The notes: generated by a model from the letters alone, not told the origin. A DNA stretch of 64,000 nucleotides from a virus (IMGVR_UViG_3300011116_001007), one strand, 5' to 3'; shown: positions 7,966 through 34,219, numbered from the stretch's first letter. A program made the numbers and translations.

Positions 7966-8210
7966 AGTTCAACTTTCAAACGATTAATGCCTTCATGCGG
8001 GCAGTACAGTTCACTGAGTCTCCAGCATTCCATATACTCGTCGTGTTCCTGCTGGGTCACATATCTAAAAGGAAATGAATCTAAATTTTTATCTCGCAAT
8101 CGTTGCAAAATTTTCTCAGGAGCATCCCATTCAAACACACAATCAGCAGGATGATTGGCCAATGCTGCGGTCAATCCAGCTTTGATATCTCGTAATCTAA
8201 GAAACCTCAT
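7962..8210 (-). CDS. Hypothetical protein
   Basis: ORF track; ATGA overlaps. Confidence 0.75.
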   Translation of the reverse strand: MRFLRLRDIKAGLTAALANHPADCVFEWDAPEKILQRLRDKNLDSFPFRYVTQQEHDEYMECWRLSELYCPHEGINRLKVEL

Positions 8211-8425
8211 TCTTCAACACCATATTCTCGTTTAAGATCATCTAATGCTTTGCGAACCTTTTCAGCAACTGGCCGATACTTCACAGGGCCGATAGGATGA
8301 TAGTTCCATTCTGTGCCCTTCCACACTCTATTACCATTCAATAGTCGATCAACCTCTGCTAGGATTTCAAAGCGAGGATCAGCCCACATCTTGATTTGAT
8401 TATCAGGAACGACGGGTGTGTTCAT
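8207..8425 (-). CDS. Hypothetical protein ending in the GVEE junction
   Basis: ORF track; ends EYGVEE*. Confidence 0.8.
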   Translation of the reverse strand: MNTPVVPDNQIKMWADPRFEILAEVDRLLNGNRVWKGTEWNYHPIGPVKYRPVAEKVRKALDDLKREYGVEE

Positions 8426-8520
8426 AGTCCATGCCTGGCTAGAATATTACTCAACCACATCAATCCTAAACCAAATAGAATAGTACTAATGATTAGCAAT
8501 TTGATTTCAGTTCGGTTCAT
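8422..8520 (-). CDS. 32-aa membrane peptide (not in ORF track)
   Basis: MNRTEIKLLIISTILFGLGLMWLSNILARHGL; ATGA overlaps on both sides. Confidence 0.7.
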   Translation of the reverse strand: MNRTEIKLLIISTILFGLGLMWLSNILARHGL

Positions 8521-8765
8521 TCTTCAACTCCGAAATGTTCTTTAATCTCTAGAATAGGATGTAAGTATTCTTCACCAGGTCTGCTCATTCTAACAGTGTA
8601 TGGACTAATAATATCAATACATTCCTGCACAATCAACTCGGCGAACTTTTCTAAATCTTGGTCATTGATGCTATCGGAGCGCGGACCTTCCCATCGTTTC
8701 ATTCCAAAATCACCGTTTCGCACAAGCCCAGCCTCAAGGGCAAGTTGTTTAATTCGTTCGTTCAT
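8517..8765 (-). CDS. MNERI-family small protein
   Basis: MNERIKQLA ... EKFAELIVQEC ... EHFGVEE. Confidence 0.9.
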   Translation of the reverse strand: MNERIKQLALEAGLVRNGDFGMKRWEGPRSDSINDQDLEKFAELIVQECIDIISPYTVRMSRPGEEYLHPILEIKEHFGVEE

Positions 8766-8863
8766 TCTTCAACTCCGGTTGCTGGACAGAATGGTGTATG
8801 CCCATTCTTGTTGGGATTTCTGTAACAATGCTTGCACCAGTTATAATCTTTAGGTTGGTTCAT
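8762..8863 (-). CDS. 33-aa Cys/His peptide ending GVEE (not in ORF track)
   Basis: MNQPKDYNWCKHCYRNPNKNGHTPFCPATGVEE; CxxC...H...C. Confidence 0.7.
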   Translation of the reverse strand: MNQPKDYNWCKHCYRNPNKNGHTPFCPATGVEE

Positions 8864-9072
8864 TCTTCAACTCCGATACATTGTTCCACATCCTCTAAGA
8901 TACGCTTGAGTTCGTCAATGTTCATTTCCAAAAACTCTGTCGTATAGATGGCAGCAATTTGCTCAACATTTGTTACATCCTTAGCATACCTTTTAACTCG
9001 ATACTCGGTCAGCATCTTTTCCTTGCCGGCGATTGTGTTACGCAGGTTCTCTGCTAGGGTTTGGATGTTCAT
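8860..9072 (-). CDS. Hypothetical coiled-coil protein ending GVEE
   Basis: ORF track; ends EQCIGVEE*. Confidence 0.8.
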   Translation of the reverse strand: MNIQTLAENLRNTIAGKEKMLTEYRVKRYAKDVTNVEQIAAIYTTEFLEMNIDELKRILEDVEQCIGVEE

Positions 9073-9251
9073 TCTTCAACTCCGAAATGTTCTAAGATAC
9101 CATTAGGTCCATCAAACGCAAGTGTAGCACACTCACGCACAATCAACAAGGCGAACTTTTCTTCGTCAAACCCAAACGCTAGTAACTCACCATTTACACC
9201 GTAAGTTTCAATTCGGCACTGTTCAGCAAATTTTTCAATTCGTTCGTTCAT
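9069..9251 (-). CDS. MNERI-family small protein
   Basis: MNERIEKFA ... EKFALLIVREC ... EHFGVEE. Confidence 0.9.
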   Translation of the reverse strand: MNERIEKFAEQCRIETYGVNGELLAFGFDEEKFALLIVRECATLAFDGPNGILEHFGVEE

Positions 9252-9487
9252 TCTTCAACACCAAAACGTTTTTTGATCCGATATGCGGCACTGCGGACAC
9301 CGGTACTATAGGGGCCATAATCATCCTCATCATCCAACATGCCAACACATTCTCTCACAATCAACTCAGCAAATTTTTTTGTAAATTCAGATGGTACATA
9401 CATTTTATCAACATCTCCGTCCGGATCGTTACCATTCATAACGATAGACATAGCCTGAAGATTAAGTTCTTTAATTCGTTCGTTCAT
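9248..9487 (-). CDS. MNERI-family small protein
   Basis: MNERIKEL ... KKFAELIVREC ... RFGVEE. Confidence 0.9.
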   Translation of the reverse strand: MNERIKELNLQAMSIVMNGNDPDGDVDKMYVPSEFTKKFAELIVRECVGMLDDEDDYGPYSTGVRSAAYRIKKRFGVEE

Positions 9488-9723
9488 TCTTCAACTCCAA
9501 AATGTTGTTTAATAACAGAATTACAATCCATCATTTTATCAACGTGAGGTTGACCTTTTACTAAGGCCGCGCATTCTTTCACAATCAACTCGGCGAACTT
9601 TTCTATTTGCTCTAATCCTTCTTGTTCAGTGTCGGTTAGGGCATGGATAGTACGATAGTAATGTAACAATAGTGCTGGCTCAAGTTTAGCCTGTAGAGCA
9701 AGTTCTTTAATTCGTTCGTTCAC
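9484..9723 (-). CDS. MNERI-family small protein (GTG start)
   Basis: MNERIKELA ... EKFAELIVKEC ... QHFGVEE. Confidence 0.9.
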   Translation of the reverse strand: MNERIKELALQAKLEPALLLHYYRTIHALTDTEQEGLEQIEKFAELIVKECAALVKGQPHVDKMMDCNSVIKQHFGVEE

Positions 9724-9953
9724 TTGTTATTCTCCAAATAAAACATACCAACACGAACTAACGCTTCGGCGTGTTCACGGTCTTTTGGCAACACCACTGC
9801 TTCACCATTGATAAGTTTGTTATACTCACTAGCACATTCCCGAACAATCAACTCGGCGAACTTTTCCAACTGAAGGGCATCAATGTGCTGATAGAATTCT
9901 TTAGGCTTAAAGATACCAGCCTGTTGAGCAAGTTCATCTATTCGTTCGTTCAT
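9720..9953 (-). CDS. MNERI-family small protein
   Basis: MNERIDELA ... EKFAELIVREC; different C-terminus. Confidence 0.9.
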   Translation of the reverse strand: MNERIDELAQQAGIFKPKEFYQHIDALQLEKFAELIVRECASEYNKLINGEAVVLPKDREHAEALVRVGMFYLENNK

Positions 9954-10111
9954 CGTAATTCCTCTAATGCTCGTTTAACATGCTTCTTTTTGTATTGTGG
10001 GAATGCTTTGATGATGTCCTCATCAAACAAATAGTGCGGATTGCTTCGTTGATGTTCACCGATGAATTCTTCAACCTCATCTAGTAGCTTGGCAAATTTT
10101 TCGTCTTTCAT
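9950..10111 (-). CDS. 53-aa hypothetical protein (not in ORF track)
   Basis: MKDEKFAKLLDEVEEFIGEHQRSNPHYLFDEDIIKAFPQYKKKHVKRALEELR; ATGA overlaps. Confidence 0.75.
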   Translation of the reverse strand: MKDEKFAKLLDEVEEFIGEHQRSNPHYLFDEDIIKAFPQYKKKHVKRALEELR

Positions 10112-10386
10112 TGTTCAACTTCCTCTACTGGTTGGTTAGGGATGTTTTCTGTATCGCCATCTTTAGCAAAAGTAAATCCCAAACCTAACATTATTTCAGT
10201 CTCTGATGGTGTACAGTTGCCGCGAAAAATAAAAATTCTACGGGTTAGGTTGTCGTTAGAATAATAAATCCTGTAGGACACTCGGGGCACATTTAATTTT
10301 TCTGAAAGTATAGCCAACGATATCTCATCACCCCAATCTTCGGTGATAGATTCCCGTTGTTGTTCATACATAAAATCTTTCATCAT
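10108..10386 (-). CDS. Hypothetical protein
   Basis: ORF track; starts at a GVEE junction. Confidence 0.75.
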   Translation of the reverse strand: MMKDFMYEQQRESITEDWGDEISLAILSEKLNVPRVSYRIYYSNDNLTRRIFIFRGNCTPSETEIMLGLGFTFAKDGDTENIPNQPVEEVEQ

Positions 10387-10631
10387 TCTTCAACTCCGAA
10401 ATGTTTCAGTAATTCTTCTGGCTCAGGATGCCAAGCGTTGTTGCTATCATCATAACCAGAAATATCTTCAATAAACTTAGCACATTCCCGAACAATCAAC
10501 TCGGCGAACTTTTCGTTATAGTGTTGAAACCATGCTTGGTCAAAGGTACGGCGATCTGCCACCCCTTCGGTGGTAATGTCATTGATTGGTTGAAATGCCT
10601 CAAGAGCAAGTTCTCGAATTCGTTCGTTCAT
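10383..10631 (-). CDS. MNERI-family small protein
   Basis: MNERIRELA ... EKFAELIVREC ... KHFGVEE. Confidence 0.9.
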   Translation of the reverse strand: MNERIRELALEAFQPINDITTEGVADRRTFDQAWFQHYNEKFAELIVRECAKFIEDISGYDDSNNAWHPEPEELLKHFGVEE

Positions 10632-10789
10632 TTTTTAAAACTTTCGATCCATTGTACTAGAATATCCCTAGCCTCTTTCGGGCCAAGACCAAAGTATTCT
10701 TGAAGATACGGCGCGGCACCCCACATATTGGTCACTCCAGAATCCCGTAGTGCAACAAGATACTCAAAATATTCTTTATTATCGTTCAT
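10628..10789 (-). CDS. Hypothetical phage protein (53 aa)
   Basis: Start re-placed at 10789 (GGAG upstream): MNDNKEYFEYLVALRDSGVTNMWGAAPYL... Confidence 0.8.
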   Translation of the reverse strand: MNDNKEYFEYLVALRDSGVTNMWGAAPYLQEYFGLGPKEARDILVQWIESFKK

Positions 10790-11078
10790 TCTTCTTCTCC
10801 GACAATTCTGTTTCCATTTTGTCAATTGCTGTGTCAAGCATGGCAGTTGTGATCTCGTTTGGATTCATTCCAAAATGCAGTTTGATCATGTCCACACCCT
10901 GCCCGCGACTGATCATGTCACGCAACATTGGTGCCAATGCAATACAACATTCACGAATGACCAACTCAGCGGTACGATTCTGAATCTCTTTGATTTTATT
11001 GTAGCCTAACGCTACCCAAGTCTCGGGTACCAGTTCATCCAGCACCTGACCCGTAATCTGGTTAATTCGTTGGTTCAT
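10779..11078 (-). CDS. Divergent MNERI-family protein with C-terminal extension
   Basis: MNQRINQI ... RTAELVIREC ... LHFG. Confidence 0.8.
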   Translation of the reverse strand: MNQRINQITGQVLDELVPETWVALGYNKIKEIQNRTAELVIRECCIALAPMLRDMISRGQGVDMIKLHFGMNPNEITTAMLDTAIDKMETELSEKKNER

Positions 11079-11230
11079 GCGTCCAGTCCTGACTTGACAT
11101 GTTTTGGGCGGCGACGATACTGCACTCGGCTTTGTTCTGCACGGTGACGGAATGGTGTGTCGCGTGAATACAGTTCCACAGCACGACGGCGCTGGCGAGG
11201 CAGTTCAATTCGAAAACTCACGGGTTTCAT
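11075..11230 (-). CDS. Basic 51-aa protein, ArfA-like (not in ORF track)
   Basis: ...TPFRHRAEQSRVQYRRRPKH resembles ArfA FRQRVE...YMRKGKH. Confidence 0.5.
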   Translation of the reverse strand: MKPVSFRIELPRQRRRAVELYSRDTPFRHRAEQSRVQYRRRPKHVKSGLDA

Positions 11231-11262
11231 AAAATATCCATAAAAAATCCGGTGTATGCTGT

Positions 11263-11291
11263 ATTATAGCACAAACCGGATTAGTGGTCAA
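11263..11291 (-). promoter_or_regulatory. Sigma70-type early promoter driving the 18-ORF array
   Basis: TTGACC-17nt-TATAAT; inverted repeat AATCCGGT/ACCGGATT brackets the -10. Confidence 0.85.
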
Positions 11292-11313
11292 CCTGGAATT
11301 TGAGCCGTTTTTG

Positions 11314-11448
11314 TTAGATCCAGCCCCGGAAATCTTCCATCATAAGCCGTTGAGCACCTTTATGATCGCCGTTGCGTGCCATATTTGCAGCCGTATTGGC
11401 CAGGGCCATTGCACCAAAAAAGTTGTAAATGGATTTTAATATGGTCAT
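11314..11448 (-). CDS. 44-aa hypothetical protein (not in ORF track)
   Basis: MTILKSIYNFFGAMALANTAANMARNGDHKGAQRLMMEDFRGWI; TAATG overlap with upstream gene. Confidence 0.7.
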   Translation of the reverse strand: MTILKSIYNFFGAMALANTAANMARNGDHKGAQRLMMEDFRGWI

Positions 11449-11621
11449 TACCATCCCCTACGCAAATGGTTCAAATCAAATTGACGAGTCAATCGATCCA
11501 CATCGCAGGCAGTTTGTGGTGCATTTCTAACAATGTATTCTTCCAATGCTGAACTGTAGGTTTGTGGCCTACTGAACGTCTGAAACATCTTGTGGAAGTA
11601 TTCAGTCAATTGATTCAACAT
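11448..11621 (-). CDS. 57-aa protein resembling DUF3563 (not in ORF track)
   Basis: ALEEYIVRNAPQTACDVDRLTRQFD; AGGAG RBS. Confidence 0.55.
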   Translation of the reverse strand: MLNQLTEYFHKMFQTFSRPQTYSSALEEYIVRNAPQTACDVDRLTRQFDLNHLRRGW

Positions 11622-11625
11622 GGCT

Positions 11626-11913
11626 TTAGGCTCCTTTGGTTTTGCCTGTGCCTGTGGCTTGATAGGCTTTCATGATGCCTTCGCCAAACTTCACATAGTC
11701 AAATTTGGCAGTATCGCGCATCAATTTGACGCTTTCGGTCATGATGCTGTTGCTTGCATCTGTGGTGGCCTTAAAGGCCTTTTTGGTGTATTCTGCTTGA
11801 GTGTCAATGAATTGGTTCATGGACTCTGCAATGTGCTCGTTGGTGACAAAAGTCTTAACGAATTGTTTTTTACCATTTTGAATGGTGTCGATCATGGTGT
11901 CTGCTGTAAACAT
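11626..11913 (-). CDS. Phasin-like amphipathic helical protein
   Basis: Start re-placed at 11913 (AAGGAG RBS); Ala/Lys/Thr-rich helices, no Cys or Trp, basic tail; PhaR-like box upstream. Confidence 0.55.
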   Translation of the reverse strand: MFTADTMIDTIQNGKKQFVKTFVTNEHIAESMNQFIDTQAEYTKKAFKATTDASNSIMTESVKLMRDTAKFDYVKFGEGIMKAYQATGTGKTKGA

Positions 11914-11969
11914 GGTGTTCTCCTTAATAAGCAAGCAAATTATAGGACCCGCCCCGTGCAGCATCCTAT
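11914..11969 (-). promoter_or_regulatory. ROSE-like structured 5' leader
   Basis: AUAGGAUGC...GGGUCCUAU hairpin followed by CUUGCUUAUUAAGGAG (UUGCU pairs with the SD, bulged G). Confidence 0.65.
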
Positions 11970-11974
11970 GTGCT

Positions 11975-12006
11975 ATTATATATGATAAAATGCTGCGACC
12001 GCACAT
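11975..12006 (-). promoter_or_regulatory. Promoter (-10 TATAAT) with PhaR-like operator over the -35
   Basis: ATTATA at 11975-11980; ATGCTGCG-AC-CGCACAT at 11990-12006 (CTGC-N4-GCAS). Confidence 0.5.
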
Positions 12007-12099
12007 TTTCCGGCGAAATACAGAAGAAAAAATAAATAAAAGTGCAGTTCGCGGATCTGGACAATCCCAACTGCTCTATGATTATTAAGGAATCACAGC

Positions 12100-12543
12100 A
12101 TGCCTATTTATAAATCTACTCATACTTTTCCCTATGTGTATCTTTGTCAGGAAAAAGATTCACCGTATTTCTATATCGGATATCGATACGCAAATCGAGT
12201 GCCGTCATCTGAAGATTTTGGAAAACATTATTTTACATCAAACAAGTATGTTAAAGAAAACTTTGACAAGTTTGATCATACCATAGTAGCAGAGTTTTTT
12301 GACAAAAAAGATGCATACACATTTGAATCTGAACTGATCAAAGAATTGAACTCAAAATATCTGCTGAATGCCCAGCGGATAGGGCGGCTCACGGGCACAT
12401 CATACAAACCCAAGATAACAGAAGAAGTTATTTCAAAAACTTGTGCTTTGCCCGAATGCAACAAGATTTTCACCAACTGGCGGTCAAAATGCTGCTGTAT
12501 CTCGCATAGTAAAAAATACGCAGGTATGCGACGTCACCAATAA
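12100..12543 (+). CDS. Free-standing GIY-YIG (Seg-like) endonuclease
   Basis: PYVY...FYIGYR, AYTFESELI...LLN; C-terminal Cys cluster. Confidence 0.75.
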   Translation: MPIYKSTHTFPYVYLCQEKDSPYFYIGYRYANRVPSSEDFGKHYFTSNKYVKENFDKFDHTIVAEFFDKKDAYTFESELIKELNSKYLLNAQRIGRLTGTSYKPKITEEVISKTCALPECNKIFTNWRSKCCCISHSKKYAGMRRHQ

Positions 12544-12563
12544 ATAAATCATAGGAGAACATT

Positions 12564-12863: not shown

Positions 12864-12883
12864 ACTACTAGGTTTACACCCCC

Positions 12884-12913
12884 AAAACCCCTCTTAAATA
12901 ATAGAGGGGTTTT
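12884..12913. terminator. Terminator-like hairpin with TAAATA in the loop
   Basis: AAAACCCCTCT-TAAATAAT-AGAGGGGTTTT. Confidence 0.75.
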
Positions 12914-12938
12914 ATTTTGACTAGAAAAGGGGGAAACC

Positions 12939-16284: not shown

Positions 16285-16575
16285 TCACTGCAAAATCATA
16301 CGCATTAACCCGATGGAGTCGATTGTGACCAACAGGCCGCAGTTGGCCAGCATGCCAAAAGATCTACGGCTATAAGAAGCCCACCCATACATACAACACT
16401 GGCAAATAAAAACAGGATAGATAAGAACCAAAGGCGGTGTTGGAACAGTGAGCGCCATAGTAACACTACATCCGATACTAAGCGCCCAAGCCGTAGTTTC
16501 AATGATAAAACGTAAAGGGTATGCTCGATAGTCATCTTTGATCCAGGTTGTGATGTTGATTAAAACATTGCTCAT
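16285..16575 (-). CDS. Small integral membrane protein
   Basis: Three hydrophobic helices. Confidence 0.75.
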   Translation of the reverse strand: MSNVLINITTWIKDDYRAYPLRFIIETTAWALSIGCSVTMALTVPTPPLVLIYPVFICQCCMYGWASYSRRSFGMLANCGLLVTIDSIGLMRMILQ

Positions 16576-17741
16576 GTTCTGTCAGAAAAATAATTTTGCT
16601 TTTCTCCAACTCGATCAAGATCGGTGGTCATGCAATGCACTCCGCCGTCATAAAAATATATTTGTGGAATATCTATCACGTGAACGGTGATTCCATACTT
16701 CTCTAATTTAGAATTAAGTTGATCGTTTTTTACCAGAGTAATAACATTTTTTGTGTCAACCACCAGCATATTTACATCAAACACACTTTCCCCAGATGAT
16801 CCTACCCAAGAATCAAAGCTATTTTCTACTAGGTCTATCAACTCATCGTCGGTCTCGTGGCCTGGGTACCACCATCGATTTCGTATTCTCTTAGAGAGTT
16901 CTTTATGTGCTGCCATTGGGTTATTATTACGAACATATATAACTTCCCAGCCGGGAAAATACCTATCATAATCAATTACCAAGTCAGGATCGTCATGTGC
17001 AACAATTAGTCCTGGACAAATAACACAAAATATGCCATCTGTGTGACCGACTGAATCAATCATATGATTTCTGTAATCTGCAAATTCAGTATCATAGATG
17101 GTCTGACGCTTAGCCAAGTCACGATCTGCTGCCATTGTTCCAAAATACAGATCTTGTCCAATTCTATTTAATAGTCCGCCGTCGGACATTGCCCAGTCAA
17201 CAGTTTGATTTCCCTGCTGCTTGACAAGGTCTAATATATCACCATAACAATTGTTAAAATGAGTCAGCCAACCCATTTCTCCTGCCAAGTTAAAATGATC
17301 GTATGCTTCGTTTATTTGTGCAGTAGGAGCATGTGCTAAAAAATCATAAACACTATTGTATCTATCCCACGAAGGATCTGCTATGTTAGCGTAATATTTT
17401 TTCCAGTACTGATCGCTCCAATTCTGATAATAAAATTTATTGCCTATCATCATCATGGTATTACGAGGTTGTAATGGTGGACAAGGGCCAATTTGTTTTT
17501 TCTCATCAAAAGGATACTGAAAATTTACATTTGGTCTTAGTACCTGCACCCCGAGATCTTGCAATTTTTTTACTAATAATTTTAGTCCACTCTCAGTATC
17601 AATGGACATACATTCAAGCAAGCTTCTTAATCGTGGCTGTTTGATCCAAGAAAAATATTCAGGAGGAACTGTCTGCCCCACAATACAGGTTTGTAATGGA
17701 TCCCAATTCTGATGTATGCTAAACATTATTTTTTTGTTCAA
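16572..17741 (-). CDS. Amidinotransferase-family protein (divergent paralog)
   Basis: NWDPL..CIVG, QPRN, GHTDG, FDVNMLV, GGVHCMT. Confidence 0.85.
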   Translation of the reverse strand: MNKKIMFSIHQNWDPLQTCIVGQTVPPEYFSWIKQPRLRSLLECMSIDTESGLKLLVKKLQDLGVQVLRPNVNFQYPFDEKKQIGPCPPLQPRNTMMMIGNKFYYQNWSDQYWKKYYANIADPSWDRYNSVYDFLAHAPTAQINEAYDHFNLAGEMGWLTHFNNCYGDILDLVKQQGNQTVDWAMSDGGLLNRIGQDLYFGTMAADRDLAKRQTIYDTEFADYRNHMIDSVGHTDGIFCVICPGLIVAHDDPDLVIDYDRYFPGWEVIYVRNNNPMAAHKELSKRIRNRWWYPGHETDDELIDLVENSFDSWVGSSGESVFDVNMLVVDTKNVITLVKNDQLNSKLEKYGITVHVIDIPQIYFYDGGVHCMTTDLDRVGEKQNYFSDRT

Positions 17742-18744
17742 ACAATTGCTGACTGGCTAGATTCTTACCTTTGGCTTCAACTTGAATATCCCAATCGTCA
17801 CTAAAGGTCAATGCCCAGTCGTTCACAGCACGATTCCACATGAAGTCACTGTGTGCGCGAAGCTTTTGCTTGCGATATCCGCGATCAAGTAGTTGGTCGA
17901 GGTCAGGTCTGACAAGGGGATCGTGATCCACCAAAACGTCTTCACGACTAACACTGTAGTGAAGAACAGGACGAGTACCACGCCAAGACTCCAACACGCG
18001 ACGCGCCCTAGGGTCCACGGGTGTGATGTATTCACCGGTGCGGATCCAGTGGTGGTGGATGTCCAGCGTAAGAGCACAATGCTCAGCCACAGCCAAAGTA
18101 ACGTCGATACCATTTGTCATCTCATCATTCTCGATGGCAATTAAGTTTCTAGCTTCGGGAGTAAGTCTGCCCAAAGTACGTAGAAATTTAGCGGGGCCAC
18201 CTTTACCGCTTAAATGTACATTTATCTTGAAACCGTGATCATGCCAATTTTTTCCATAACCCATCCAACGAGCCATGTCCACATGATATTCAAATTCTAG
18301 TATGCTGCGTTCTACAATTTCGTCTGCTTCCGATGCCAGCACACAAAACTGTCCAGGATGAAAGCTCAGTCGCACACCCAGTCTGCGGGCAGTTTCACCA
18401 ACAGGGGCAAAGATACGAGCACAGTGATTTTGTATTTCTTGACGCTGCCACCAGTTGATCCATGACGGTTCAGTGTAGCCTTGCAGCATTTCACTGCCCA
18501 GTCGTACCATTCTGCGACCTTCAGGCAGCGTGGCCACACGTTCAATCAGTCTGACTGCTGCGGCAGCATTGTGATTCATTATGTCCCATTGACGCTGTTC
18601 TGCCTCGGCTGCATGCTCGCGGAGCCAGCGCATGGTGGTTGATCGGCCGTTTAGATCACGGTCCACAGCATTGACTTTCATGCCGCCACATTCGGACGGA
18701 TCATTGAGCCATTTGCAACAAAAACCAATTTGGGGTGTAGTCAT
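17719..18744 (-). CDS. uvsE: UV-damage endonuclease
   Basis: RLSFHPGQF, IENDE, LDIHHH, HYSVSR, KLRAHSD, VEAKGKNLA. Confidence 0.93.
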   Translation of the reverse strand: MTTPQIGFCCKWLNDPSECGGMKVNAVDRDLNGRSTTMRWLREHAAEAEQRQWDIMNHNAAAAVRLIERVATLPEGRRMVRLGSEMLQGYTEPSWINWWQRQEIQNHCARIFAPVGETARRLGVRLSFHPGQFCVLASEADEIVERSILEFEYHVDMARWMGYGKNWHDHGFKINVHLSGKGGPAKFLRTLGRLTPEARNLIAIENDEMTNGIDVTLAVAEHCALTLDIHHHWIRTGEYITPVDPRARRVLESWRGTRPVLHYSVSREDVLVDHDPLVRPDLDQLLDRGYRKQKLRAHSDFMWNRAVNDWALTFSDDWDIQVEAKGKNLASQQLFEQKNNV

Positions 18745-25030: not shown

Positions 25031-26239
25031 CTAAAAATTAGCTGCCTTTAGTGCAATAGGAGCCTCAACTTGATCCACATCAATTTCCACAGTTTTTATG
25101 CCTTGTGTGTGATATTGACGCAGATAAAACATGTGAGGTAGCAGCACACGTTCCAGCTCAGAATGCAGGCCACGAGCGCCTGTTTTGTTTTTCATGGTGC
25201 GTTCAGCAATGAGATCCAAGCTGGCATCAGTAAACTTCAACTCCACACTGTCACAATTGAACAACCAACTGTATTGCGAAATGTAGCTGTGTTTGACCTG
25301 TGTCAATATCATCACCAGATCTGCTTTGCTGAGTTCTTCCAGCGACACCCAGCTTTGGAATCGACCCACAAACTCTGGAATCATGCCATAACGGATTAGA
25401 TCTTCTGGAGTAGTTTTGGCCAAGTGCAAAGAACTGTCACGATCCATATTGGCACCAAATCCAATGGTGGTACCTTTGGTACGATTTTTTACTATGTTGT
25501 CCAGGCCCACAAATGCGCCGCCGCCTATAAACAGGATATTCCTAGTATCAATTTCCACAGTTTCACCCGATGGGTGCTTGCGGCCACCTTGCGGAGTGAT
25601 CCTACATTTGGTACCTTCTACCAGCTTGAGCAAGGCCTGTTGTACGCCTTCTCCACTGACATCTCTAGTGATACTGGCACTTTCACTTTTGCGACTGATC
25701 TTGTCTATTTCGTCAATGAACACAATACCGCGCTGTGTTTTTTCCACGTCATTGCCGGCAGCAGCAAACAGTCTACCAATCATGCTTTCAACATCATCAC
25801 CCACATATCCGGCTTCGGTAAGGCTGGTAGCATCAGCAATCACAAATGGCACATCTAAGTAACGTGCCACAGTTCGAGCCAGCAGTGTTTTGCCCGAACC
25901 AGTTGGTCCCAACATCAAGATATTGGTTTTTTCAATTTCTACATTGACGTCTTGATTGTTGATACGCTTGTAATGATTGACCACAGCCACACTCAACACT
26001 TGTTTAGCTTGTTCTTGTCCAATCACGTATCTGTCAAGGTGCCGCTTGATCTCCATTGGGTCCAATGAATCGCCTGTGTCAGCAGGTGTGACAATCAGAT
26101 CATCTTTCAACAAGGTCTCGCACAATTCCACACATTCGTTGCAGATGGCCACGGCTTCGCCAACTATGAGTTTGGTCACAATGTCCTTGTGTTTGCCGCA
26201 AAAACTGCAAGTAGTGTTACTGGTTTCGTTATTTTTCAT
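25031..26239 (-). CDS. clpX: ATP-dependent Clp protease ATPase subunit
   Basis: CSFC/CNEC Zn domain, [21 protein letters not shown] loop, IGF loop. Confidence 0.96.
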
Positions 26240-27740
26240 TGGTTTGTTTCTTGAGTTGTTCTGCCACTTGGTCACGCTCGCTATCGCTCAGCAAATCTGG
26301 ATCGTATTCTCCGCCATCTATTTTTTCAATTAAGTAGTTGATATAAGCGTCGTCATAAGTGTAACTGTCTGTGACATTTTTGTCAACCTCCATCCAGTCC
26401 TGACCATTGAATTTGTATACAACTGTGGGCTGCACATCTATTCGAACAAACGTATCTCCTCGCTTGGCATCCGTGGGGAACACTGTGCCAAAGCTGCTGT
26501 CAGGATATTCCATCCAGGGCAATTGTTTGATAATGCCCATCCTGAATCGTATGCGTTGGTTCTTTAATGTGTCAGCTGGATGGTCAAGTTTCCAGCGTTT
26601 GATCCTGGCTTTGATCCGGGGGTCGTCTTCGTCAATTTCTTCATCGTTGGCCTGGATTCCTGACAACACAATCTCAAGTTTTTCTTTGTCTCTTAAAAAA
26701 GGACCATCGCCAACATCACAATTTCTGTTGGGGCAGAACGGTCCAATACCTGGTGCATTCAGCAGCGGTGTGCCACACTTGTAGCAAGGTTCTAATTCGG
26801 GATCACTGGGTTCGGGGCGATATACTTGAATTGGCGCAGGTTCTATACCTGGAGGAGTATCACTGCCTGCAGGTGTAAACAAGTAGGGATGATCTTTGAT
26901 ATCAAATTCTTTTTCTGCTGGCAGCTCGGGATCGGGCACAGGGTCATCTACTGTTTCGGGTATTTCTTCACTATCTTTGGCTTTCTCTCTGGCCCATTTC
27001 AAACTTTCAGACGCTGCCAGCAACAACATGATGGCCAGCGGATCAAACACGCATACCAACAAGATGATAACCCAACGCACAGCACGTTCCAACACGTTGG
27101 TGTCAGGATTGTCTCCGTAGATCAATGCTGCGATATATTTTATCGGTCCAACCTCTGCCTCCACTTTGCGTACCTCGGCGGCAATAGGCGCACGGGCATT
27201 GTTAAGTTCCGCGATAGACTTCTGCGACTGTAGTATTTCATTTTGAAGGCGACTACGTTCTTTCTGCTGGGACTTTCGCATAGCCACAGCTTTGTCGGCA
27301 CCTTTTTCATCTGTTGAGCGGCCCAGTACTGAGTCCACTCCCTCATCCATCTGTTTAAGTGCCTTACGGTTTGCTTCAATATTCTCTTTTTCGGTTTTGA
27401 TTTTTTCATCATATATTGCTATCTTGGCTTGTACATCACCTGATACCAAGTTCTGATCGCTGTGTGCTTTTGACAAAAATCCAAAGATACCCATTGATGT
27501 GATCAGCATCAACATCAGCACAGCTGGCACTAGATACAATTTCATCAACCATCTAGCACGTGACCAATATTCATGCAGCCACAAGGTCACAACAACTTTG
27601 GCCAATTCAAGGATTGATCCCATGACCATGATGGGAATCACTGCTGCTGCAAATATAGCGGTCAAGCCGGCTATGCTGTAGTAGGCAGCAATGACACTTA
27701 GGCTCAAGGCCACAAATAAGGTAATAAGACTGAGGAACAT
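26229..27740 (-). CDS. Membrane-anchored coiled-coil protein with Zn-ribbon and C-terminal domain
   Basis: Three N-terminal TM helices, long coiled coil, CYKC...CPNRNC; TAAATA five nt before ATG 27740. Confidence 0.75.
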
Positions 27741-28415: not shown

Positions 28416-28416
28416 T

Positions 28417-29148: not shown

Positions 29149-29974
29149 GAGCCCGAATCAAACGAATCATCATGTCAGTATCTTCTTTTTCGTAGGCTCG
29201 TTCAATCTTGTCTAGCAGTTTCATAGCTTTGGTACTGGCATTTCTACTGGCAGGATCTTTTTCAGAAACTCCAATCCATCTGTTACCATGTTTAATACGC
29301 AACATTTCACAGTAATCACTCCAACCACTAGCATCATGTGGGTCTGGACGATTTGGATATACAGTAGTCCACCATAGATACAATTCTTTAATTTCCTTGG
29401 CACGTAATGCTTGACCAGTGGGCTTGCCGTAATTGGGATCAGTTTCTTCTACACCCCAGTCTGAGCCCATTGTTAAAGTCATTGCCCAGTCAAGATGATC
29501 GAGACCTGCTTGAGGGCAACGCCAAGTGCGCCAACGGAACCAACCCGTGGCCCAGAATGGTGCTTTATACTTTGCTCGGGCTTCTTTATCGCCCCAGGCA
29601 ATGTGATGCCATGCTTGTTCTATCTCAACAAAATCAACCAACTCATTGAATAAGCAAGGCAAAAAGCGGTTGCCCACGTCGCACCATTCGCCCGGTTTAA
29701 TATCCCGGGCATGAGCGGTAAGACTATGAGTGCGACTAACCCAACGGTTGTTAATGTAGTACTTGATATCATATAGTTTCCTTACAGGCCAGGTTACAAA
29801 ATCTTGGATGTGCCCCAGTGCTTCTTCCGCAAGCCAATATCGAAAGTTGTGCTTCATTTGTGCCTGAGTGGTCCACTCATCCCATTCTTCGCTTGTGCCT
29901 GCATTCAATTTCTTAGTGCCGCGAAGCCAATCTGCGAAAGGACTGCAACTCCAATAATTTGTATGTTGTGCCAT
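29129..29974 (-). CDS. Trp-rich conserved hypothetical phage protein
   Basis: 281-aa ORF. Confidence 0.8.
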   Translation of the reverse strand: MAQHTNYWSCSPFADWLRGTKKLNAGTSEEWDEWTTQAQMKHNFRYWLAEEALGHIQDFVTWPVRKLYDIKYYINNRWVSRTHSLTAHARDIKPGEWCDVGNRFLPCLFNELVDFVEIEQAWHHIAWGDKEARAKYKAPFWATGWFRWRTWRCPQAGLDHLDWAMTLTMGSDWGVEETDPNYGKPTGQALRAKEIKELYLWWTTVYPNRPDPHDASGWSDYCEMLRIKHGNRWIGVSEKDPASRNASTKAMKLLDKIERAYEKEDTDMMIRLIRARDSLWT

Positions 29975-30429
29975 TATTTTACTTCTTTGTAGGTCTGTGG
30001 AAAAATTTCTTTCTTCACAGCACCGTAATCGCCTGTACCGTGACGTACAATATAATCATTACCTTTGGTATAGGTAAGGTCGCCCCAAGTTGTGTGCAGC
30101 ACACCATCATGATCCGCAAGTTTTACCTGTTTAGGAATAGACTTAGGACTAGCTGTGCCATCACCATTGTCTGTTTTTAACTCATGAAAAGTTTCTGGAT
30201 CATTAAGATATTCTTCGCCTTCGGGTCCGGTAATAACATAATCGCCGACCCTTCCTGGTAACGCCTCATTTTCTAGTGATTTAATAATTTCGGGTTCTTT
30301 CAAAATCCTAAACGGTTCAATCTTGGTTGAAATCTTAGCGGCAATAAACGATCCTGTTTTAAACCAGTCATCATTGATCACAGTACCTTCTACTAGATCG
30401 ATATGTTTTCTAATGTCTTGTGTGTTCAT
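29974..30429 (-). CDS. PGDYG-like protein
   Basis: Internal duplication GRVGDYVITGPEGEEY / TKGNDYIVRHGTGDYG. Confidence 0.75.
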   Translation of the reverse strand: MNTQDIRKHIDLVEGTVINDDWFKTGSFIAAKISTKIEPFRILKEPEIIKSLENEALPGRVGDYVITGPEGEEYLNDPETFHELKTDNGDGTASPKSIPKQVKLADHDGVLHTTWGDLTYTKGNDYIVRHGTGDYGAVKKEIFPQTYKEVK

Positions 30430-30854
30430 TATTGATATTCCTTATCTAATTTTACATTGGTAAGACCTGCTATCACTTGGAAGTTATCCCAAGCATCTTT
30501 TGCGGCAACATTTTTTTCCAGCTCACTGCTGGGCAATACTGCTTCCAACCAAATTTCTGGCCTACGAGCAGGGCGAGCACCAAATTTGCGAGGCTGATGC
30601 ATTTTGCCATCATCGTATAACATGATGCTCACACTGCGGAATCGATCCTCGTCATCCTTGCTGTGATAATCGTAATTGCCCCATTCGGGATTGCTCAATC
30701 CGCCATGAGTGTAACCGTCCCAAATTCCTGCCCACTGTGTGTCATCGTGCGGATCAAAATTTGTACGGGTGATCACTACCAATACATCGTCCGTATCCAC
30801 ACGACCTTCCACAATGTCAAGAACACAACGACTGTAACTCAGTCCAACTTTCAT
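30429..30854 (-). CDS. Hypothetical protein
   Basis: ORF track. Confidence 0.8.
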   Translation of the reverse strand: MKVGLSYSRCVLDIVEGRVDTDDVLVVITRTNFDPHDDTQWAGIWDGYTHGGLSNPEWGNYDYHSKDDEDRFRSVSIMLYDDGKMHQPRKFGARPARRPEIWLEAVLPSSELEKNVAAKDAWDNFQVIAGLTNVKLDKEYQ

Positions 30855-31396
30855 TTAAATAATCCTTCAGTGCTCAATGCCAGTTCTTCACGATGCTGGT
30901 CCATGGCCGCTTGCAATGCCTGTTCAATAAATTGATTCAAAGTGATATCCTGTTCGTGTGCCAGTTTCATGTATAGAAACAACTCGTGTTCGGGCAAATC
31001 CAAATCCAAAGCCACTCGGGTATCATACTCTTGACCGTTCACAATGGCCTGAGCTTTTTCCAACCAATCAGACTCCACATCAAGATCTATGTGTTTGACA
31101 TCGTCCCAGGCAAAATCTCCCATGCCACGTTCCTCAGTTTCTTTGCGATGCTTTTCCACAAATTTGGGATTGATCAAGCGATAAGCCCGGTTGTGGGTGT
31201 AGTCACACACTTCAACTTCGTAGACCTTTTGACTCTTGGTGCTGAACACCATGTTGGCACTCCAGCCACCTGCGCCATGGAGGCCGTTCCAAGCACCAAT
31301 TTGATAACTGTTGGGGCCGTAACACTTCCACCCATAATCGTCGCCCTCGCCAATGCGATAGTTGATTGTTTCCATAAACTGCTGTACTGTGATCAT
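30851..31396 (-). CDS. Hypothetical protein
   Basis: Start re-placed at MITVQQF (AGGAG RBS). Confidence 0.8.
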   Translation of the reverse strand: MITVQQFMETINYRIGEGDDYGWKCYGPNSYQIGAWNGLHGAGGWSANMVFSTKSQKVYEVEVCDYTHNRAYRLINPKFVEKHRKETEERGMGDFAWDDVKHIDLDVESDWLEKAQAIVNGQEYDTRVALDLDLPEHELFLYMKLAHEQDITLNQFIEQALQAAMDQHREELALSTEGLFK

Positions 31397-31409
31397 ATTT
31401 ACTCCTGTA

Positions 31410-32774
31410 TTAAATCTTCTCGTTGGCTTCAAATCCACGGAATCTTACAAATCTCGGAAACCTCAAACTGTAGGTTCCGTCTTGGTTTTGCGTGACTGCA
31501 TCAGCTTCAACTTCAATGACGTTATCAAGCAAAGTATCACGTGTGTCCCAAAACCGCTGGCGATCATCGTCACTAAAACCGCTACCAACATTGACTCTAA
31601 TGTTTCTGTCATTGTCTGTTCCTTCACATATTATAGCACCCAAGCGGTCCGCATTGCGACCAGTTCCTTGCTCAAAACCCACAATATTGAGATCAACAGT
31701 GATGGTGGGTTTCCATTTCATCCAAAAGTCTGACCGCTTGCACTCATATGGTGCATCCAGATTCTTGATCATGATGCCCTCAAAGCCTTCAGCAACACAA
31801 TCCTGTGCATACCGATTCATCACGTCATGTCCTTCAGCTGTGTCCAAATCCACTTCAACACCACTCATTATACGCAAACAGGTGGTTTGAGCAAACTGGC
31901 GTTGGCACACTTTTTCCAACCAATCCAACCGTTTGCGTTGTTGTCTATTGCAATGTCCTTCTTTGAATTCATGCAAGCCCATGATATCAAACACATGATA
32001 TACCATTCCTGAAGTTTCGGCGTCATGCTTGCGATGTGCTTGGCGCATCAGCTGCTGGAAACTTTCTCCTACAATCTCGCCATCTAACACAATTCCGCCT
32101 GCTGGGATGTCAAGATCAGCAGCTTCTATAGCTTCTGCAATCTGCGGAAAGTTCATGAACTCTTTGCCGTTACGGCTGTACAATGTCGCATTGTTTCTAG
32201 TGACCACTGCCAGCACACGCACGCCATCCAGTTTGACTTCCAGGCGTTTGATGCCTTTCATCTTGGCCGGACGATCAGTTGAGTCCTGTGCCAGTTGGCA
32301 TGAAAATACTGGAATGCGATATTGTGTTTTGCCCAACACTTTGTTCAGAGTTTTTTCGCTGATGCCACAACGAAGGTCTTTAGAGATCACCGGCGCACAT
32401 ACCAGGTTCCATTCGTCACTGTCAAATTGATCACGGATGTCTAGCAGTTGATCTCTGGCTGCATGGCCAGTGTAGCTTCGGGTGCGTAGTGCTTCCAGCA
32501 GTCCCCAGAATCGAGGCCACGGATTGGCTTGTCCTGTGCGTCCCGGCTCGGCCGCAGGAAGTTGCTTGACGTAGTAGGTGTAGAAGGGATTGTAGGCCTG
32601 GTAGCAGTTGAACAAAAAAGCCTGTGCATCGGCACTGCCCAATTTTGAAGCCATCAGGGCTTTTTCGATAACTTTTTCCTTGTGAATGCGGCTGTCAGAT
32701 TCAGCAAGTTCTTTTATCCAACCTGATGACATGACACCCTCATAACGCGGATCATTGGGGTTGTATTCATTCAT
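31410..32774 (-). CDS. ATP-dependent DNA ligase (T4 gp30-like)
   Basis: EVKLDGVR (adenylated Lys), LDGEI, EGIMIK, WMKWK, SLRFPRF. Confidence 0.95.
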   Translation of the reverse strand: MNEYNPNDPRYEGVMSSGWIKELAESDSRIHKEKVIEKALMASKLGSADAQAFLFNCYQAYNPFYTYYVKQLPAAEPGRTGQANPWPRFWGLLEALRTRSYTGHAARDQLLDIRDQFDSDEWNLVCAPVISKDLRCGISEKTLNKVLGKTQYRIPVFSCQLAQDSTDRPAKMKGIKRLEVKLDGVRVLAVVTRNNATLYSRNGKEFMNFPQIAEAIEAADLDIPAGGIVLDGEIVGESFQQLMRQAHRKHDAETSGMVYHVFDIMGLHEFKEGHCNRQQRKRLDWLEKVCQRQFAQTTCLRIMSGVEVDLDTAEGHDVMNRYAQDCVAEGFEGIMIKNLDAPYECKRSDFWMKWKPTITVDLNIVGFEQGTGRNADRLGAIICEGTDNDRNIRVNVGSGFSDDDRQRFWDTRDTLLDNVIEVEADAVTQNQDGTYSLRFPRFVRFRGFEANEKI

Positions 32775-32777
32775 TAT

Positions 32778-33236
32778 TTACTTCTCTTGTTTCTTGGTCA
32801 ATGCACACACAAATAAAAATTGATCGTAGGCTGCTTTTACAGTGGCGTTGGTCAGTAATTTATCTGCTTCTGCTTGCAATGCTCGAACACCTGCTTCCGC
32901 AATATCATGTATGCTGGCTCCATTCAGCGTACACAGTTCGTCACCAAACTCCTTGGCCAGTTTTTTCCAGGCTCGTTGTTGAGCAGGCGTGATAGGAGTA
33001 CGAGCTGGCCGCATTTCGCTGGCTTTGTTCAAGGCCTTGCACATGGCATCTTCAGCCACACGACTGGCCGCAATCAAGGCTGCATAGTTGGGATCAATGT
33101 TGTACTGGCGACTCTCTCCACCTGGATAGCACATCACAAGATGATTGCCTTTGGGAAAAGTATAATGATCGTCGTAGTTTTCAGCCACAGGCACATACCT
33201 GCGCCCAACTTTTTCGTATAAGATTTTTTTTACCAT
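32778..33236 (-). CDS. Hypothetical protein
   Basis: ORF track. Confidence 0.8.
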   Translation of the reverse strand: MVKKILYEKVGRRYVPVAENYDDHYTFPKGNHLVMCYPGGESRQYNIDPNYAALIAASRVAEDAMCKALNKASEMRPARTPITPAQQRAWKKLAKEFGDELCTLNGASIHDIAEAGVRALQAEADKLLTNATVKAAYDQFLFVCALTKKQEK

Positions 33237-33574
33237 GAGCTGTTGTAGAACACTCGTAGACCCAGAAACAATTCAGCCTTGGCGTCGCGGATGAATTTGA
33301 GATCGCTGTCATGATACTCATCATCACTGTTGTTGCCAAAGAAGAATCCGCCAGTGGCAGGCAAGGTTTTTTCTCGCACGGCTTGTTCCAGTGCGTCAAG
33401 ATCTTCCCATGTGAGTTCTAGTTCGTCGCCGTTGAATTGTCCCGAATTGCCCTTGGATTCCCACAGCCGATGCATCCAGCCATGCAGGTTAGGATGCTTA
33501 CGCCAGTAAGCAATCTCACGTGGGTTCTCTGCTGCTGGTTTGGCAGCGGTGTACGCATACATGTCTAGTCCCAT
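33230..33574 (-). CDS. Conserved hypothetical phage protein
   Basis: MGLDMY...YWRKHPNLHGWM...GGFFFG. Confidence 0.85.
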   Translation of the reverse strand: MGLDMYAYTAAKPAAENPREIAYWRKHPNLHGWMHRLWESKGNSGQFNGDELELTWEDLDALEQAVREKTLPATGGFFFGNNSDDEYHDSDLKFIRDAKAELFLGLRVFYNSSW

Positions 33575-33584
33575 TGCAAATCTC

Positions 33585-33764
33585 CTATGACTGTATTTTA
33601 ACGGTATTCACGTTATCTGTCAACTCTTTGATTTTTTCCAAAGTTTCCCGATAGCCTGCATAGTGCAGAGCCATTTCATAACTGCCATCTTGGCAGCTTT
33701 TCCAATGTGCATTGGACTCTAGTATGGCCTTTGCACGGGCCTGTAGTGTTTCAAGTTCCGTCAT
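33585..33764 (-). CDS. 59-aa hypothetical protein (not in ORF track)
   Basis: MTELETLQARAKAILESN...; starts at a GVEE junction. Confidence 0.7.
   Translation of the reverse strand: MTELETLQARAKAILESNAHWKSCQDGSYEMALHYAGYRETLEKIKELTDNVNTVKIQS
33595..33623 (-). promoter_or_regulatory. Sigma70-type promoter
   Basis: TTGACA-17nt-TAAAAT. Confidence 0.7.
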
Positions 33765-33961
33765 TCTTCTTCAACTCCGAAATGTTCTAAAATCTGATTA
33801 TAAACTTCATAATTGCCGTCAGCATATTGTTGACCAATATCAGCACATTTTTGAACAATCAACAGGGCGAACTTTTCCATTTCTTCATTAATGCCCATCG
33901 ACTCAATAACGAAATCATATAGCCCAGCCTGCTCCATAAGTTCTTTAATTCGTTCGTTCAT
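33761..33961 (-). CDS. Orphan MNERI-family small protein
   Basis: MNERIKELM ... EKFALLIVQKC ... EHFGVEEE. Confidence 0.9.
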   Translation of the reverse strand: MNERIKELMEQAGLYDFVIESMGINEEMEKFALLIVQKCADIGQQYADGNYEVYNQILEHFGVEEE

Positions 33962-33964
33962 TCT

Positions 33965-34219
33965 TCAACCCCAATCCTTCTTGTCACCAAACTGTTCGTT
34001 ATCGTTGAAGCCTGCGGTGTATGCTGTGATCTCAGCAGCAGTCATGTCTTTCATTTCCACACGAGGCGTGGTTGAAGTGGCACCTTCAAAGTAGTGCGGA
34101 TTATAACCACGGCTGTAGTAGCTGTCGGCACTGCCGCGATCATAAGGACCACCATGCCGTGGGTCATAGTTAGGTTGGCTAGTGTGATTGCCGTTTACGG
34201 CGTCCATGTATGAGGCCAT
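33965..34219 (-). CDS. Hypothetical protein
   Basis: RHGGPYDRGSADSYY; 3' end carries GGTTGAAGAATG junction. Confidence 0.8.
   Translation of the reverse strand: MASYMDAVNGNHTSQPNYDPRHGGPYDRGSADSYYSRGYNPHYFEGATSTTPRVEMKDMTAAEITAYTAGFNDNEQFGDKKDWG

Follow-up and report, generated by a model that had tools for sequence, protein, structure and literature searches.

Conserved coding blocks as probable recombination linkers of mini-gene arrays in an uncultured freshwater jumbo phage

Introduction

The classical modular theory of phage evolution pictures phage genomes as exchangeable modules separated by conserved linkers; to our knowledge, clear examples of such linkers are few, and the promoter-early stem-loop (PeSL) cassettes are the best documented. 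In this work we describe, in a 64,000-nucleotide (nt) stretch of the viral sequence IMGVR_UViG_3300011116_001007 (the whole of this stretch is called the window), a 15-nt coding joint that brings together the stop codon of one small gene and the ribosome site and start codon of the next, and that is found both in a family of mini-genes and on genes unrelated to that family. We consider it probable that the joint and the other conserved blocks of the family serve as recombination linkers, through which whole mini-genes and half-genes are shuffled between related phages.

The PeSL cassettes of T4-type phages are short promoter/terminator units that flank ORFans (Arbiol et al., 2010, PMC2839356; Comeau et al., 2014, PMC4122927). 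PeSLs bound the indels between relatives and form mini-circles, as shown by experiment; mapping put some of the crossovers in the interval from the Shine-Dalgarno to the -10 box, and the authors themselves liken the layout to integrons (PMC2839356). Integrase-free shuffling of ORFans via short expression signals has therefore already been published for T4-type phages (PMC2839356), and PeSL-mediated modular shuffling is the closest known system to the one described here: the behaviour is shared, while the defining promoter and stem-loop are absent from the joint. In both cases short conserved expression signals are repeated between small ORFans in hyperplastic regions, with no integrase, and the indels and replacements bounded by repeats that characterize PeSLs between close relatives, in ORFan-rich hyperplastic regions, were tested for and are present here. 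The intergenic promoter and terminator of a PeSL, however, give each cargo its own transcription, whereas the joint has neither promoter nor stem-loop, is coding in the upstream gene, acts at the level of translation and belongs to one gene family that adds a third, mid-gene linker. The carriers are also different, being uncultured freshwater jumbo phages and not T4-type phages, and the mini-circles of PeSLs were demonstrated experimentally, whereas the present case is built from sequence.

Two other systems deserve comparison. In the gp38 adhesins of T-even phages, hypervariable segments that are independent and easily interchanged lie between conserved glycine-rich motifs (Trojet et al., 2011, PMC3157838). 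The likeness is that of a small phage protein in which conserved motifs alternate with variable segments, and it recalls the swaps at the middle block (block B) reported below; gp38 is however a single-copy virion protein of known function, whereas genes of the mini-protein family stand in tandem, up to a dozen to an array, and their terminal motifs also join neighbouring genes. With integrons the present system shares cassettes in one orientation, promoterless as far as consensus matches show, bounded by repeats, behind a shared promoter-like site and with content that varies among relatives. It differs from them in that no integrase or recombinase family, the IntI-type tyrosine recombinase included, was found in 30 of the 32 open reading frames (ORFs) of at least 200 amino acids (aa) in the 64-kb window (PHROGs, Pfam), in that the repeat is a 15-nt unstructured coding sequence and not an attC hairpin, and in that the crossover points are not fixed. 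A first-pass annotation of this DNA had spoken of an integron-like logic without an integrase; the lack of an integrase held for these ORFs of the window, but with no attC-like hairpin the comparison is a loose analogy only.

ATGA stop/start overlaps bring about translational coupling in bacterial and phage operons, where coupled junctions normally differ from gene to gene. The joint resembles such junctions in its four-base stop/start overlap and in a ribosome site placed inside the upstream gene, so that coupling is predicted; it departs from them in that one 15-30 nt version is common to unrelated genes and to many phages.

Results and Discussion

The joint and the main array

The joint was searched as GG(A/T)GTTGAAGAATGA, written in full as GGWGTTGAAGAATGA. 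This pattern occurs exactly eight times in the window, all on the minus strand and within 8207-10397 (none in 100 shuffles), the copies lying at 8207, 8517, 8762, 8860, 9069, 9248, 9484 and 10383. The usual frame of the joint gives G-V-E-E-stop, with the start codon of the following gene overlapping the stop as ATGA. The first-pass annotation had described the joint as a GVEE terminus that holds a GGAG Shine-Dalgarno sequence and supplies the next ATG, and this is what the copies show: GGAG or GGTG lies 7 nt ahead of the ATG in all eight, GGTG being the form in two (8207 and 9248). Four variant joints were found by relaxed searches and direct reading:

10108-10122, minus strand: GAAGTTGAACAATGA, from the relaxed search
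10786-10800, minus strand: GGAGAAGAAGAATGA; the upstream 99-aa gene reads it in the third frame (EKKNER, stop)
33958-33972, minus strand: GGGGTTGAAGAATGA, upstream of the lone family gene
33761-33778, minus strand: GGAGTTGAAGAAGAATGA, with one additional GAA; gives the start of a 59-aa gene

All the exact copies belong to an array of 17 minus-strand genes between two promoter-like 33-nt repeats. Eight of the array genes are members of the mini-protein family, as judged by the family hidden Markov model (HMM), and the lone copy at 33761-33961 brings the members to nine. At every one of the 17 array boundaries the genes overlap, 15 times as ATGA, once as GTGA and once over 11 nt, and seven of the 17 are ATGA or GTGA overlaps other than the joint motif. 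In the order of the chain, the features are:

11263-11291, minus strand: candidate sigma-70-type promoter, TTGACC-17-TATAAT with TG, by consensus match only; precedes the array
11075-11230, minus strand: first gene of the chain, a 51-aa arginine-rich ORF whose stop lies in an ATGA overlap with the next gene
10779-11078, minus strand: family member, 99 aa, MNQRI..., with a long C-terminal extension (HMM E 2e-26); ends inside GGAGAAGAAGAATGA
10628-10789, minus strand: cargo, 53 aa, MNDNKEY..., starting at the variant-joint ATG; called as a gene in L121, with homologues in L006, L079 and L022
10383-10631, minus strand: family member, 82 aa (HMM); its 3' end is the exact joint 10383-10397
10108-10386, minus strand: cargo, 92 aa, non-family; starts at a joint ATG and ends in GAAGTTGAACAATGA
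9950-10111, minus strand: cargo, 53 aa, with homologues in L050, L072 and L029
9720-9953, minus strand: family member, 77 aa, with an atypical C-terminus (HMM); ends without a joint, in a GTGA overlap with the next gene
9484-9723, minus strand: family member, 79 aa, GTG start (HMM); exact joint 9484-9498
9248-9487, minus strand: family member, 79 aa (HMM); joint 9248-9262 in the GGTG form
9069-9251, minus strand: family member, 60 aa (HMM); exact joint 9069-9083
8860-9072, minus strand: cargo, 70 aa, non-family, with a joint at both ends (8860-8874 at its 3' end)
8762-8863, minus strand: 33-aa Cys-rich ORF (CxxC...C) that exactly spans two joints, joint 8762-8776 being at its end
8517-8765, minus strand: family member, 82 aa; exact joint 8517-8531; orthologues place it in four different neighbourhoods (L216, L213, L214)
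8422-8520, minus strand: cargo, 32-aa hydrophobic peptide starting at a joint ATG; homologues in L027, L075 and L042 also stand behind family C-blocks
8207-8425, minus strand: cargo, 72 aa, non-family; ends in joint 8207-8221 (GGTG form)
7962-8210, minus strand: cargo, 82 aa, starting at a joint ATG
7870-7965, minus strand: cargo, 31-aa hydrophobic peptide, from ORF reading and homologue search
7685-7873, minus strand: last family member of the array, 62 aa, MRKLI...HFGVDQ (HMM); in L216 its orthologue directly follows the 8517 orthologue via the joint
7664-7696, minus strand: second copy of the 33-nt promoter-like repeat (TTGACC-17-TATAAT at 7695-7667), closing the array

The distribution of the joint over these genes agrees with the first-pass annotation, which had it end MNERI genes and unrelated ORFs alike and also precede unrelated ORFs. 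The family genes at 8517, 9069, 9248, 9484 and 10383 end in it, and so do the ORFs 8207-8425, 8762-8863 and 8860-9072, on which the family HMM is silent even at E<=10; its ATG starts the non-family ORFs at 7962, 8422, 8762, 8860 and 10108, and the start of 33585 is supplied by the variant joint at 33761. The joint upstream of the lone family gene is indeed read in another frame, since ORF 33965-34219 ends ...DWG at the TGA within GTTGAAG.

The array layout is not an assembly artefact, because two independent sources agree with the window: the contig L121 of the Joint Genome Institute is 99.93% identical to it over 10.7 kb with zero indels, and the riverine run X4, from a different study, contains identical pieces of its DNA.

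The upstream promoter-like site (11291-11263) matches the consensus at 11 of 12 positions, and the two 33-nt copies (7664-7696 and 11260-11292; repeat family D7) are 82% identical and bracket the 3.6-kb array as direct repeats. By consensus sequence matches, no comparable promoter was found within the array between 11291-11263 and 7695-7667, and no terminator-like site was found on its gene strand. The joint itself has no promoter hexamers, these being confined to the two bracketing repeats. For four 66-nt stretches with the joint at their centre, predicted folding was no stronger than that of shuffled sequence (z +0.89 to -1.16), with no stem-loop, and no inverted repeat was found within the motif.

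This lack of structure bears on the idea that the cassettes are moved by a site-specific enzyme, either a homing endonuclease or a recombinase not recognised as such, with the joint as its target. In favour of this idea, a gene for a GIY-YIG endonuclease is found about 800 nt beyond the array promoter (12100-12543); a relative of this gene was however found in only one of about 209 fetched loci (L047), no recombinase domain turned up in the ORFs covered above, the joint offers neither inverted repeat nor hairpin, and the crossover points described below vary inside and outside the motif. We regard this explanation as extremely improbable.

Two side observations concern the borders of the array. 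Exchange between the bracketing 33-nt repeats could remove or move the entire array in the manner of PeSLs. The 51-aa arginine-rich ORF (11075-11230) is conserved in 13 other loci, mostly directly after a TGCTATAAT box (TGnTATAAT), and the mini-gene array lies downstream of this ORF in the window and upstream of the same ORF in L204.

The mini-protein family and the conservation of its blocks in DNA

Members of the family are proteins of 60-100 aa in which the constant blocks MNERIxxLA, KFAELIVxEC (the middle block, in longer form EKFAELIVREC) and HFGVEE surround two variable parts. In DNA, block A (start) begins ATGAACGAACGAATT, block B (middle) reads AAGTTCGCCGAGTTGATTGT and block C (end) reads CATTTCGGAGTTGAAGAATGA. 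An HMM built from 129 members matches nine window genes (E 5e-54 to 8e-12). In the AlphaFold model (pLDDT, the predicted local distance difference test score, of 75) each block forms one helix, so that the family is modelled as three-helix mini-proteins; no PDB fold matched the model at E<=0.001, and no Pfam or PHROG family matched the mini-protein. The family profile has 7,911 representatives (50% identity level, E<=1e-3), and the Atlas clusters of the family and their neighbours are all viral and unnamed. The possibility that block A is a cleaved capsid-targeting leader of the T4 internal-protein type (I-K-E motif) was dropped, as position 7 is Glu in only 57% of members. In four proteins of 98-154 aa (P0133, P0136, P0138 and P0173) two stretches each match the family profile, which suggests tandem copies fused by loss of the stop of the joint.

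That the blocks are more than protein motifs is indicated by codon counts, taken from family genes of fetched loci that had not been selected by the 19-mer described below and compared with the same phages elsewhere as background. In block A, Arg is CGA in 94% (background 15-21%), Asn is AAC in 89% (36-41%) and Leu is CTT in 71% (17-20%). In block B, Ala is GCC in 87% (22%), Glu is GAG in 91% (23-26%) and Leu is TTG in 91% (28%), and AAG (92%) and TTC (82%) are likewise frequent. In block C, Gly is GGA in 94% (23-25%) and Val is GTT in 91% (34-40%). Judged from this codon use, the start, middle and end blocks are conserved past the needs of the protein, that is, at the DNA level. Since block B sits mid-gene, the needs of translation initiation cannot explain the whole pattern.

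The first-pass annotation had proposed to look for the motif in related genomes, and such a scan found it widely. A 19-mer across the joint, GTTGAAGAATGAACGAACG, is exact in at least 120 IMG/VR contigs; conservation extends over about 55 nt around it, beyond which the flanks are unrelated, and few of these contigs have other DNA in common. A search of 185,579 prokaryote species genomes found the 19-mer only in three small freshwater contigs of metagenome-assembled genomes (MAGs). These sole prokaryote holders (L210-L212, 3-9 kb, in MAGs labelled Bacteroidetes or actinobacterium) are probably mis-binned phage contigs and not evidence of a host. With a 58-nt joint query, the only record apart from weak and probably fortuitous matches was a metagenomic entry of the Caudoviricetes (Manatee Spring). 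No match was obtained by megablast of the array against 50,697 phage records or by tblastn of a family member against cultured phages, and none of the papers searched contains HFGVEE, FGVEE or MNERIKEL.

The joint on genes unrelated to the family

The surroundings of the joint core (GTTGAAGAATGA) were tallied for 307 cores in 120 viral loci and the window:

Upstream family, downstream family: 118
Upstream family, downstream non-family: 106
Upstream family, downstream none: 15
Upstream non-family, downstream non-family: 22
Upstream non-family, downstream family: 20
Upstream non-family, downstream none: 2
No in-frame upstream ORF of at least 20 aa, downstream family or non-family: 24

The exact core terminates 44 non-family ORFs, among which at least seven families, relatives of the 72-aa and 92-aa cargo of the window included, are conserved in at least two contigs; the nucleotide tail that they share is 15 to 30 nt long. 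The core is also kept where it does not encode the usual tail. It is non-coding in L011 and L114, where an in-frame stop stands just ahead of the GGAG, and also in L058, and its inner TGA is a second-frame stop in L042, L053 and the 84-aa gene of the window.

Homologues of individual cargo genes allow the tail to be followed. Those of the 70-aa cargo (8860-9072) in L009, L091 and L061 have no GVEE tail and end differently, so that the tail of the window gene was acquired. For the 92-aa cargo (10108-10386), the exact motif closes the homologues in L096, L119 and L008 but not that in L060 (80% identical), and for the 72-aa cargo those in L204, L039 and L112 keep the tail in front of three other downstream neighbours. 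The 33-aa ORF 8762-8863 was not called in L121 and has no homologue among the fetched loci; it may be a genuine mini-gene, or else recombination may have left it behind as a spacer. The genes for the hydrophobic peptides of 31-32 aa (8422-8520 and 7870-7965) have counterparts of 55-77% identity in several other viral contigs, usually right behind a family C-block. An extension of the homology into ATGAAC was considered and left unused: Met-Asn starts make up 31% behind the joint and 17% at other ATGA overlaps, a modest difference that is partly seed-driven.

These data also allow us to consider the joint as a regulatory element of translation initiation, either a repressor site or the target of a GGAG-cutting RNase like T4 RegB, that would co-regulate the array, the unrelated genes having converged on it or been recruited to it. 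T4 RegA and RegB act on the ribosome sites of early genes, and the GGAG 7 nt ahead of the ATG, the retention of the motif where it is non-coding (L011, L114, L058) and the unstructured RNA around the joint, as expected of a ribosome site, would all suit such a role. The motif is nevertheless present, with at most two mismatches, in only 23 of the 84 genes starting MNER that follow a non-family ORF, two of the eight window copies carry GGTG, and block B is equally conserved in DNA though it lies mid-gene and far from any start. As a regulatory role would moreover leave the variable cargo and the half-gene swaps unexplained, we hold it to be quite improbable.

Cargo between joints varies among relatives

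The slot next to the ligase gene, between an 84-aa and a 114-aa gene, holds the lone family member of the window:

33965-34219, minus strand: 84-aa gene with the conserved end ...KKDWG, stop, GGGGTTGA, which is the left half of the hybrid joint 33958-33972
33761-33961, minus strand: lone family member, 66 aa, ending HFGVEEE (HMM); a chimera
33585-33764, minus strand: cargo, 59 aa, present in the window and L201, absent from L122 and L125

The flanks of this slot show 93-99% protein identity in the closest relatives, and four relatives have four different contents:

Window: one family gene and the 59-aa gene
L201: two family genes and the 59-aa gene
L122: a single, different family gene only
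L125: one non-family ORF

The end of the 84-aa gene, GGGGTTGA, is kept without a joint behind it in seven relatives (L125, L055, L051, L164, L063, L105 and L165), and therefore the joint at 33958-33972 is a hybrid of this native end and the cassette sequence AGAATGAACGAACG; over their common stretch the two are identical at 7 of 8 positions. In L122 the canonical A of the motif stands at the end of the 84-aa gene and alters its last residue, and the join in L201 differs again.

Family member 8517-8765 gives a second example. In L216 a copy that is 97% identical in nucleotides is preceded by a different family gene and joined exactly at the ATGA to the orthologue of 7685-7873, the four intervening genes of the window being missing, and L213 and L214 hold orthologues in two further contexts. 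For the main array as a whole, eight relatives were found via a 188-aa anchor gene: in six of them the conserved neighbours adjoin with no family array, and in a seventh the 51-aa gene is flanked on its other side by a different array. Cassette order also differs between L034, L064 and L025. Content between joints thus differs among close relatives. An invariant cargo, with the motif confined to MNERI gene ends, is what the first-pass annotation had named as evidence against its proposal, and since the cargo varies this is not what was found.

Half-gene swaps and breakpoints at the blocks

Exchange is not limited to whole genes. From block B onward the lone gene 33761-33961 is about 98% identical to a gene of L201, and its 5' half is unrelated. 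Among pairs of family genes from different contigs, 40 matched in the first variable part only, 36 in the second only and 18 in both. Because half-gene swaps occur at block B, the joint is one of three linkers and not a universal connector, block B being used equally often as a crossover block.

The breakpoints point in the same direction. They were taken as the internal ends of matches of at least 93% identity between different contigs (n=379), an end counting as near when it lay within 30 nt of a block. As many as 161 of the 379 ends were near a block, against about 16 for random positions, and they were divided among block B (70), block A (55) and block C (36); within arrays, the same 161 stand among 224 ends, against about 33 expected.

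Four freshwater metagenome runs were also compared as Logan contigs. These gave 286 joints with sides 22-35 nt inside conserved blocks, those that go back being of 32-33 nt, which are not attributable to this phage; most likely they derive from family members of other phages, and they are not counted for or against rearrangement or circles. Over the block bins 8449-8770, 9415-9897 and 10381-10541 the summed contig depth is in the hundreds to thousands, and about 8-15 in unique parts; relative to the unique parts of the phage, the blocks draw in 30 to more than 100 times the summed contig depth, a ratio that is not a copy number and that fits sharing of the blocks by many genomes. Assemblies of these phages also break at the blocks.

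A model of linker-mediated shuffling and its weaknesses

We hypothesize that these observations have a common basis. The 15-mer encodes the C-terminal block (...HFGVEE, stop) and is fused to the next start by an ATGA overlap of 4 nt, and the chains lie, apparently promoterless, behind one promoter-like site in hyperplastic slots of the genome, each probably forming one transcript with coupled translation. Blocks A, B and C, nearly identical in DNA across many phages, would act as linkers where recombination joins sequences that are otherwise unrelated. Exchange at the C/A joint would add, remove or replace whole cassettes, and exchange at block B would swap half-genes. A foreign gene caught in this way would retain a piece of block C as its GVEE tail, or stop in another frame at one of the two TGA codons of the joint. 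Because the joint unites stop, ribosome site and start, the recombinants would stay in the translated chain. The exchanges may proceed by general homologous recombination or gene conversion and the first capture of a foreign gene by microhomology, and the synonymous sites of the blocks may be kept identical by repeated conversion and not by a separate function.

In a wider form of this model, the blocks would be an enzyme-free scaffold with which a whole community of freshwater phages pools half-genes (first and second variable parts in combination) and cassettes, a generator of diversity for three-helix proteins that probably bind host or defence targets, with block identity kept because the blocks are crossover sites and not for their coding content alone. 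We offer this extension tentatively and think it rather doubtful.

Several points weigh against linker-mediated shuffling. About 78% of the cores are simply the 3' end of the family's own genes, which limits any universal use of the joint, and among the MNER-starting genes joined to a non-family ORF by an ATGA overlap the motif is found in no more than the 23 of 84 already mentioned. Some of the non-family ORFs of 20-36 aa that carry the tail may be decayed family genes and not cargo. The compared loci were selected for containing the 19-mer, so that the frequency of the motif in arrays looks inflated, and the clustering of breakpoints is partly circular, because matches between mosaic genes run on through the conserved blocks. 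The window and L121 are the two copies of this phage that were compared, and as their arrays are identical they give no sign of turnover in the population. At several new joints the stretch in common with the motif is only 4-8 nt long (ATGA in L216, GGGGTTGA at the 84-aa gene), which points to microhomology and not to a defined site; such lengths are too short for ordinary homologous recombination, and illegitimate joins made at random, if selection then kept those with intact borders of genes, would leave the same pattern. Finally, the recombination mechanism is inferred from the comparison of sequences. The universal connector of the first-pass annotation survives in part. The joint is used beyond MNERI ends, since 66 of the 307 cores do not form an in-frame family 3' end, 42 of them closing a non-family ORF and 24 lacking an in-frame upstream ORF of at least 20 aa; universality fails on the share of family ends, on the 23 of 84 and on the seven of 17 window boundaries with other overlaps.

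Much of this would follow if the arrays were ordinary tandem paralogues, the motif a conserved coding end and start with no connector role, and the mosaicism a product of general phage recombination, random illegitimate joins included, filtered by selection for intact genes. Mosaic borders at gene boundaries are a long-known trait of phage genomes, and the share of cores that are family 3' ends, the scarcity of the motif behind foreign genes, the new joints sharing as little as 4 nt and the other overlaps in the array are as this explanation predicts. It does not account for synonymous sites in the blocks that are far more uniform than codon usage predicts, in contigs that otherwise share little DNA. 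Nor is independent selection of borders sufficient to place an identical 15-30 nt tail on at least seven unrelated families and to keep it where it is non-coding or out of frame, and the half-gene crossovers lie inside block B, which is not a gene border. Therefore, we judge paralogy unlikely as a general account, although it is possible for the origin of individual joints, and linker-mediated shuffling is the interpretation that we retain.

Within the modular theory, the joint would represent a second and different example of a linker, a coding stop/ribosome-site/start unit that leaves every recombinant translated, and within the same family a further linker, placed mid-gene, would serve to swap half-genes. 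Thousands of distinct genes of uncultured freshwater phages are involved, none of them with a Pfam or PHROG family, and together they offer a concrete case for two questions, namely how phages trade small accessory genes and whether recombination itself can maintain conservation at the DNA level. It would also explain why assemblies break at the blocks and why small genes there carry the same four C-terminal residues.

The phage and other genes of the window

The source of the window is an uncultured jumbo phage from fresh water, about 308 kb in size. The longest viral sequence with one of the proteins of the array measures 308,552 bp, and the window encodes a ribonucleotide reductase, an ATP-dependent DNA ligase, a DnaB-like helicase, a primase and virion proteins, the best matches of the helicase being jumbo phages such as PA5oct (47% identity). 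The runs that hold window DNA are freshwater viromes and river or lake metagenomes. Other genes of the window are:

12100-12543, plus strand: GIY-YIG endonuclease, 147 aa (Pfam E 4.8e-5, above the curated cut-off), the gene beyond the array promoter discussed above
16572-17741, minus strand: protein with an arginine-deiminase-type C-terminal match
17719-18744, minus strand: ultraviolet (UV) endonuclease of the UvdE type (E 1e-26)
25031-26275, minus strand: ClpX-like AAA+ ATPase with a C4 zinc finger
45983-46699, minus strand: exonuclease gene (phrog_298, E 3e-52), with a weak PD-(D/E)XK match
46680-47372, minus strand: 230-aa gene overlapping the exonuclease gene, with no family match

The exonuclease gene and the 230-aa gene that overlaps it could form a phage recombination module. 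The UvdE-type, ClpX-like and arginine-deiminase-type genes are unusual as accessory genes of a phage.

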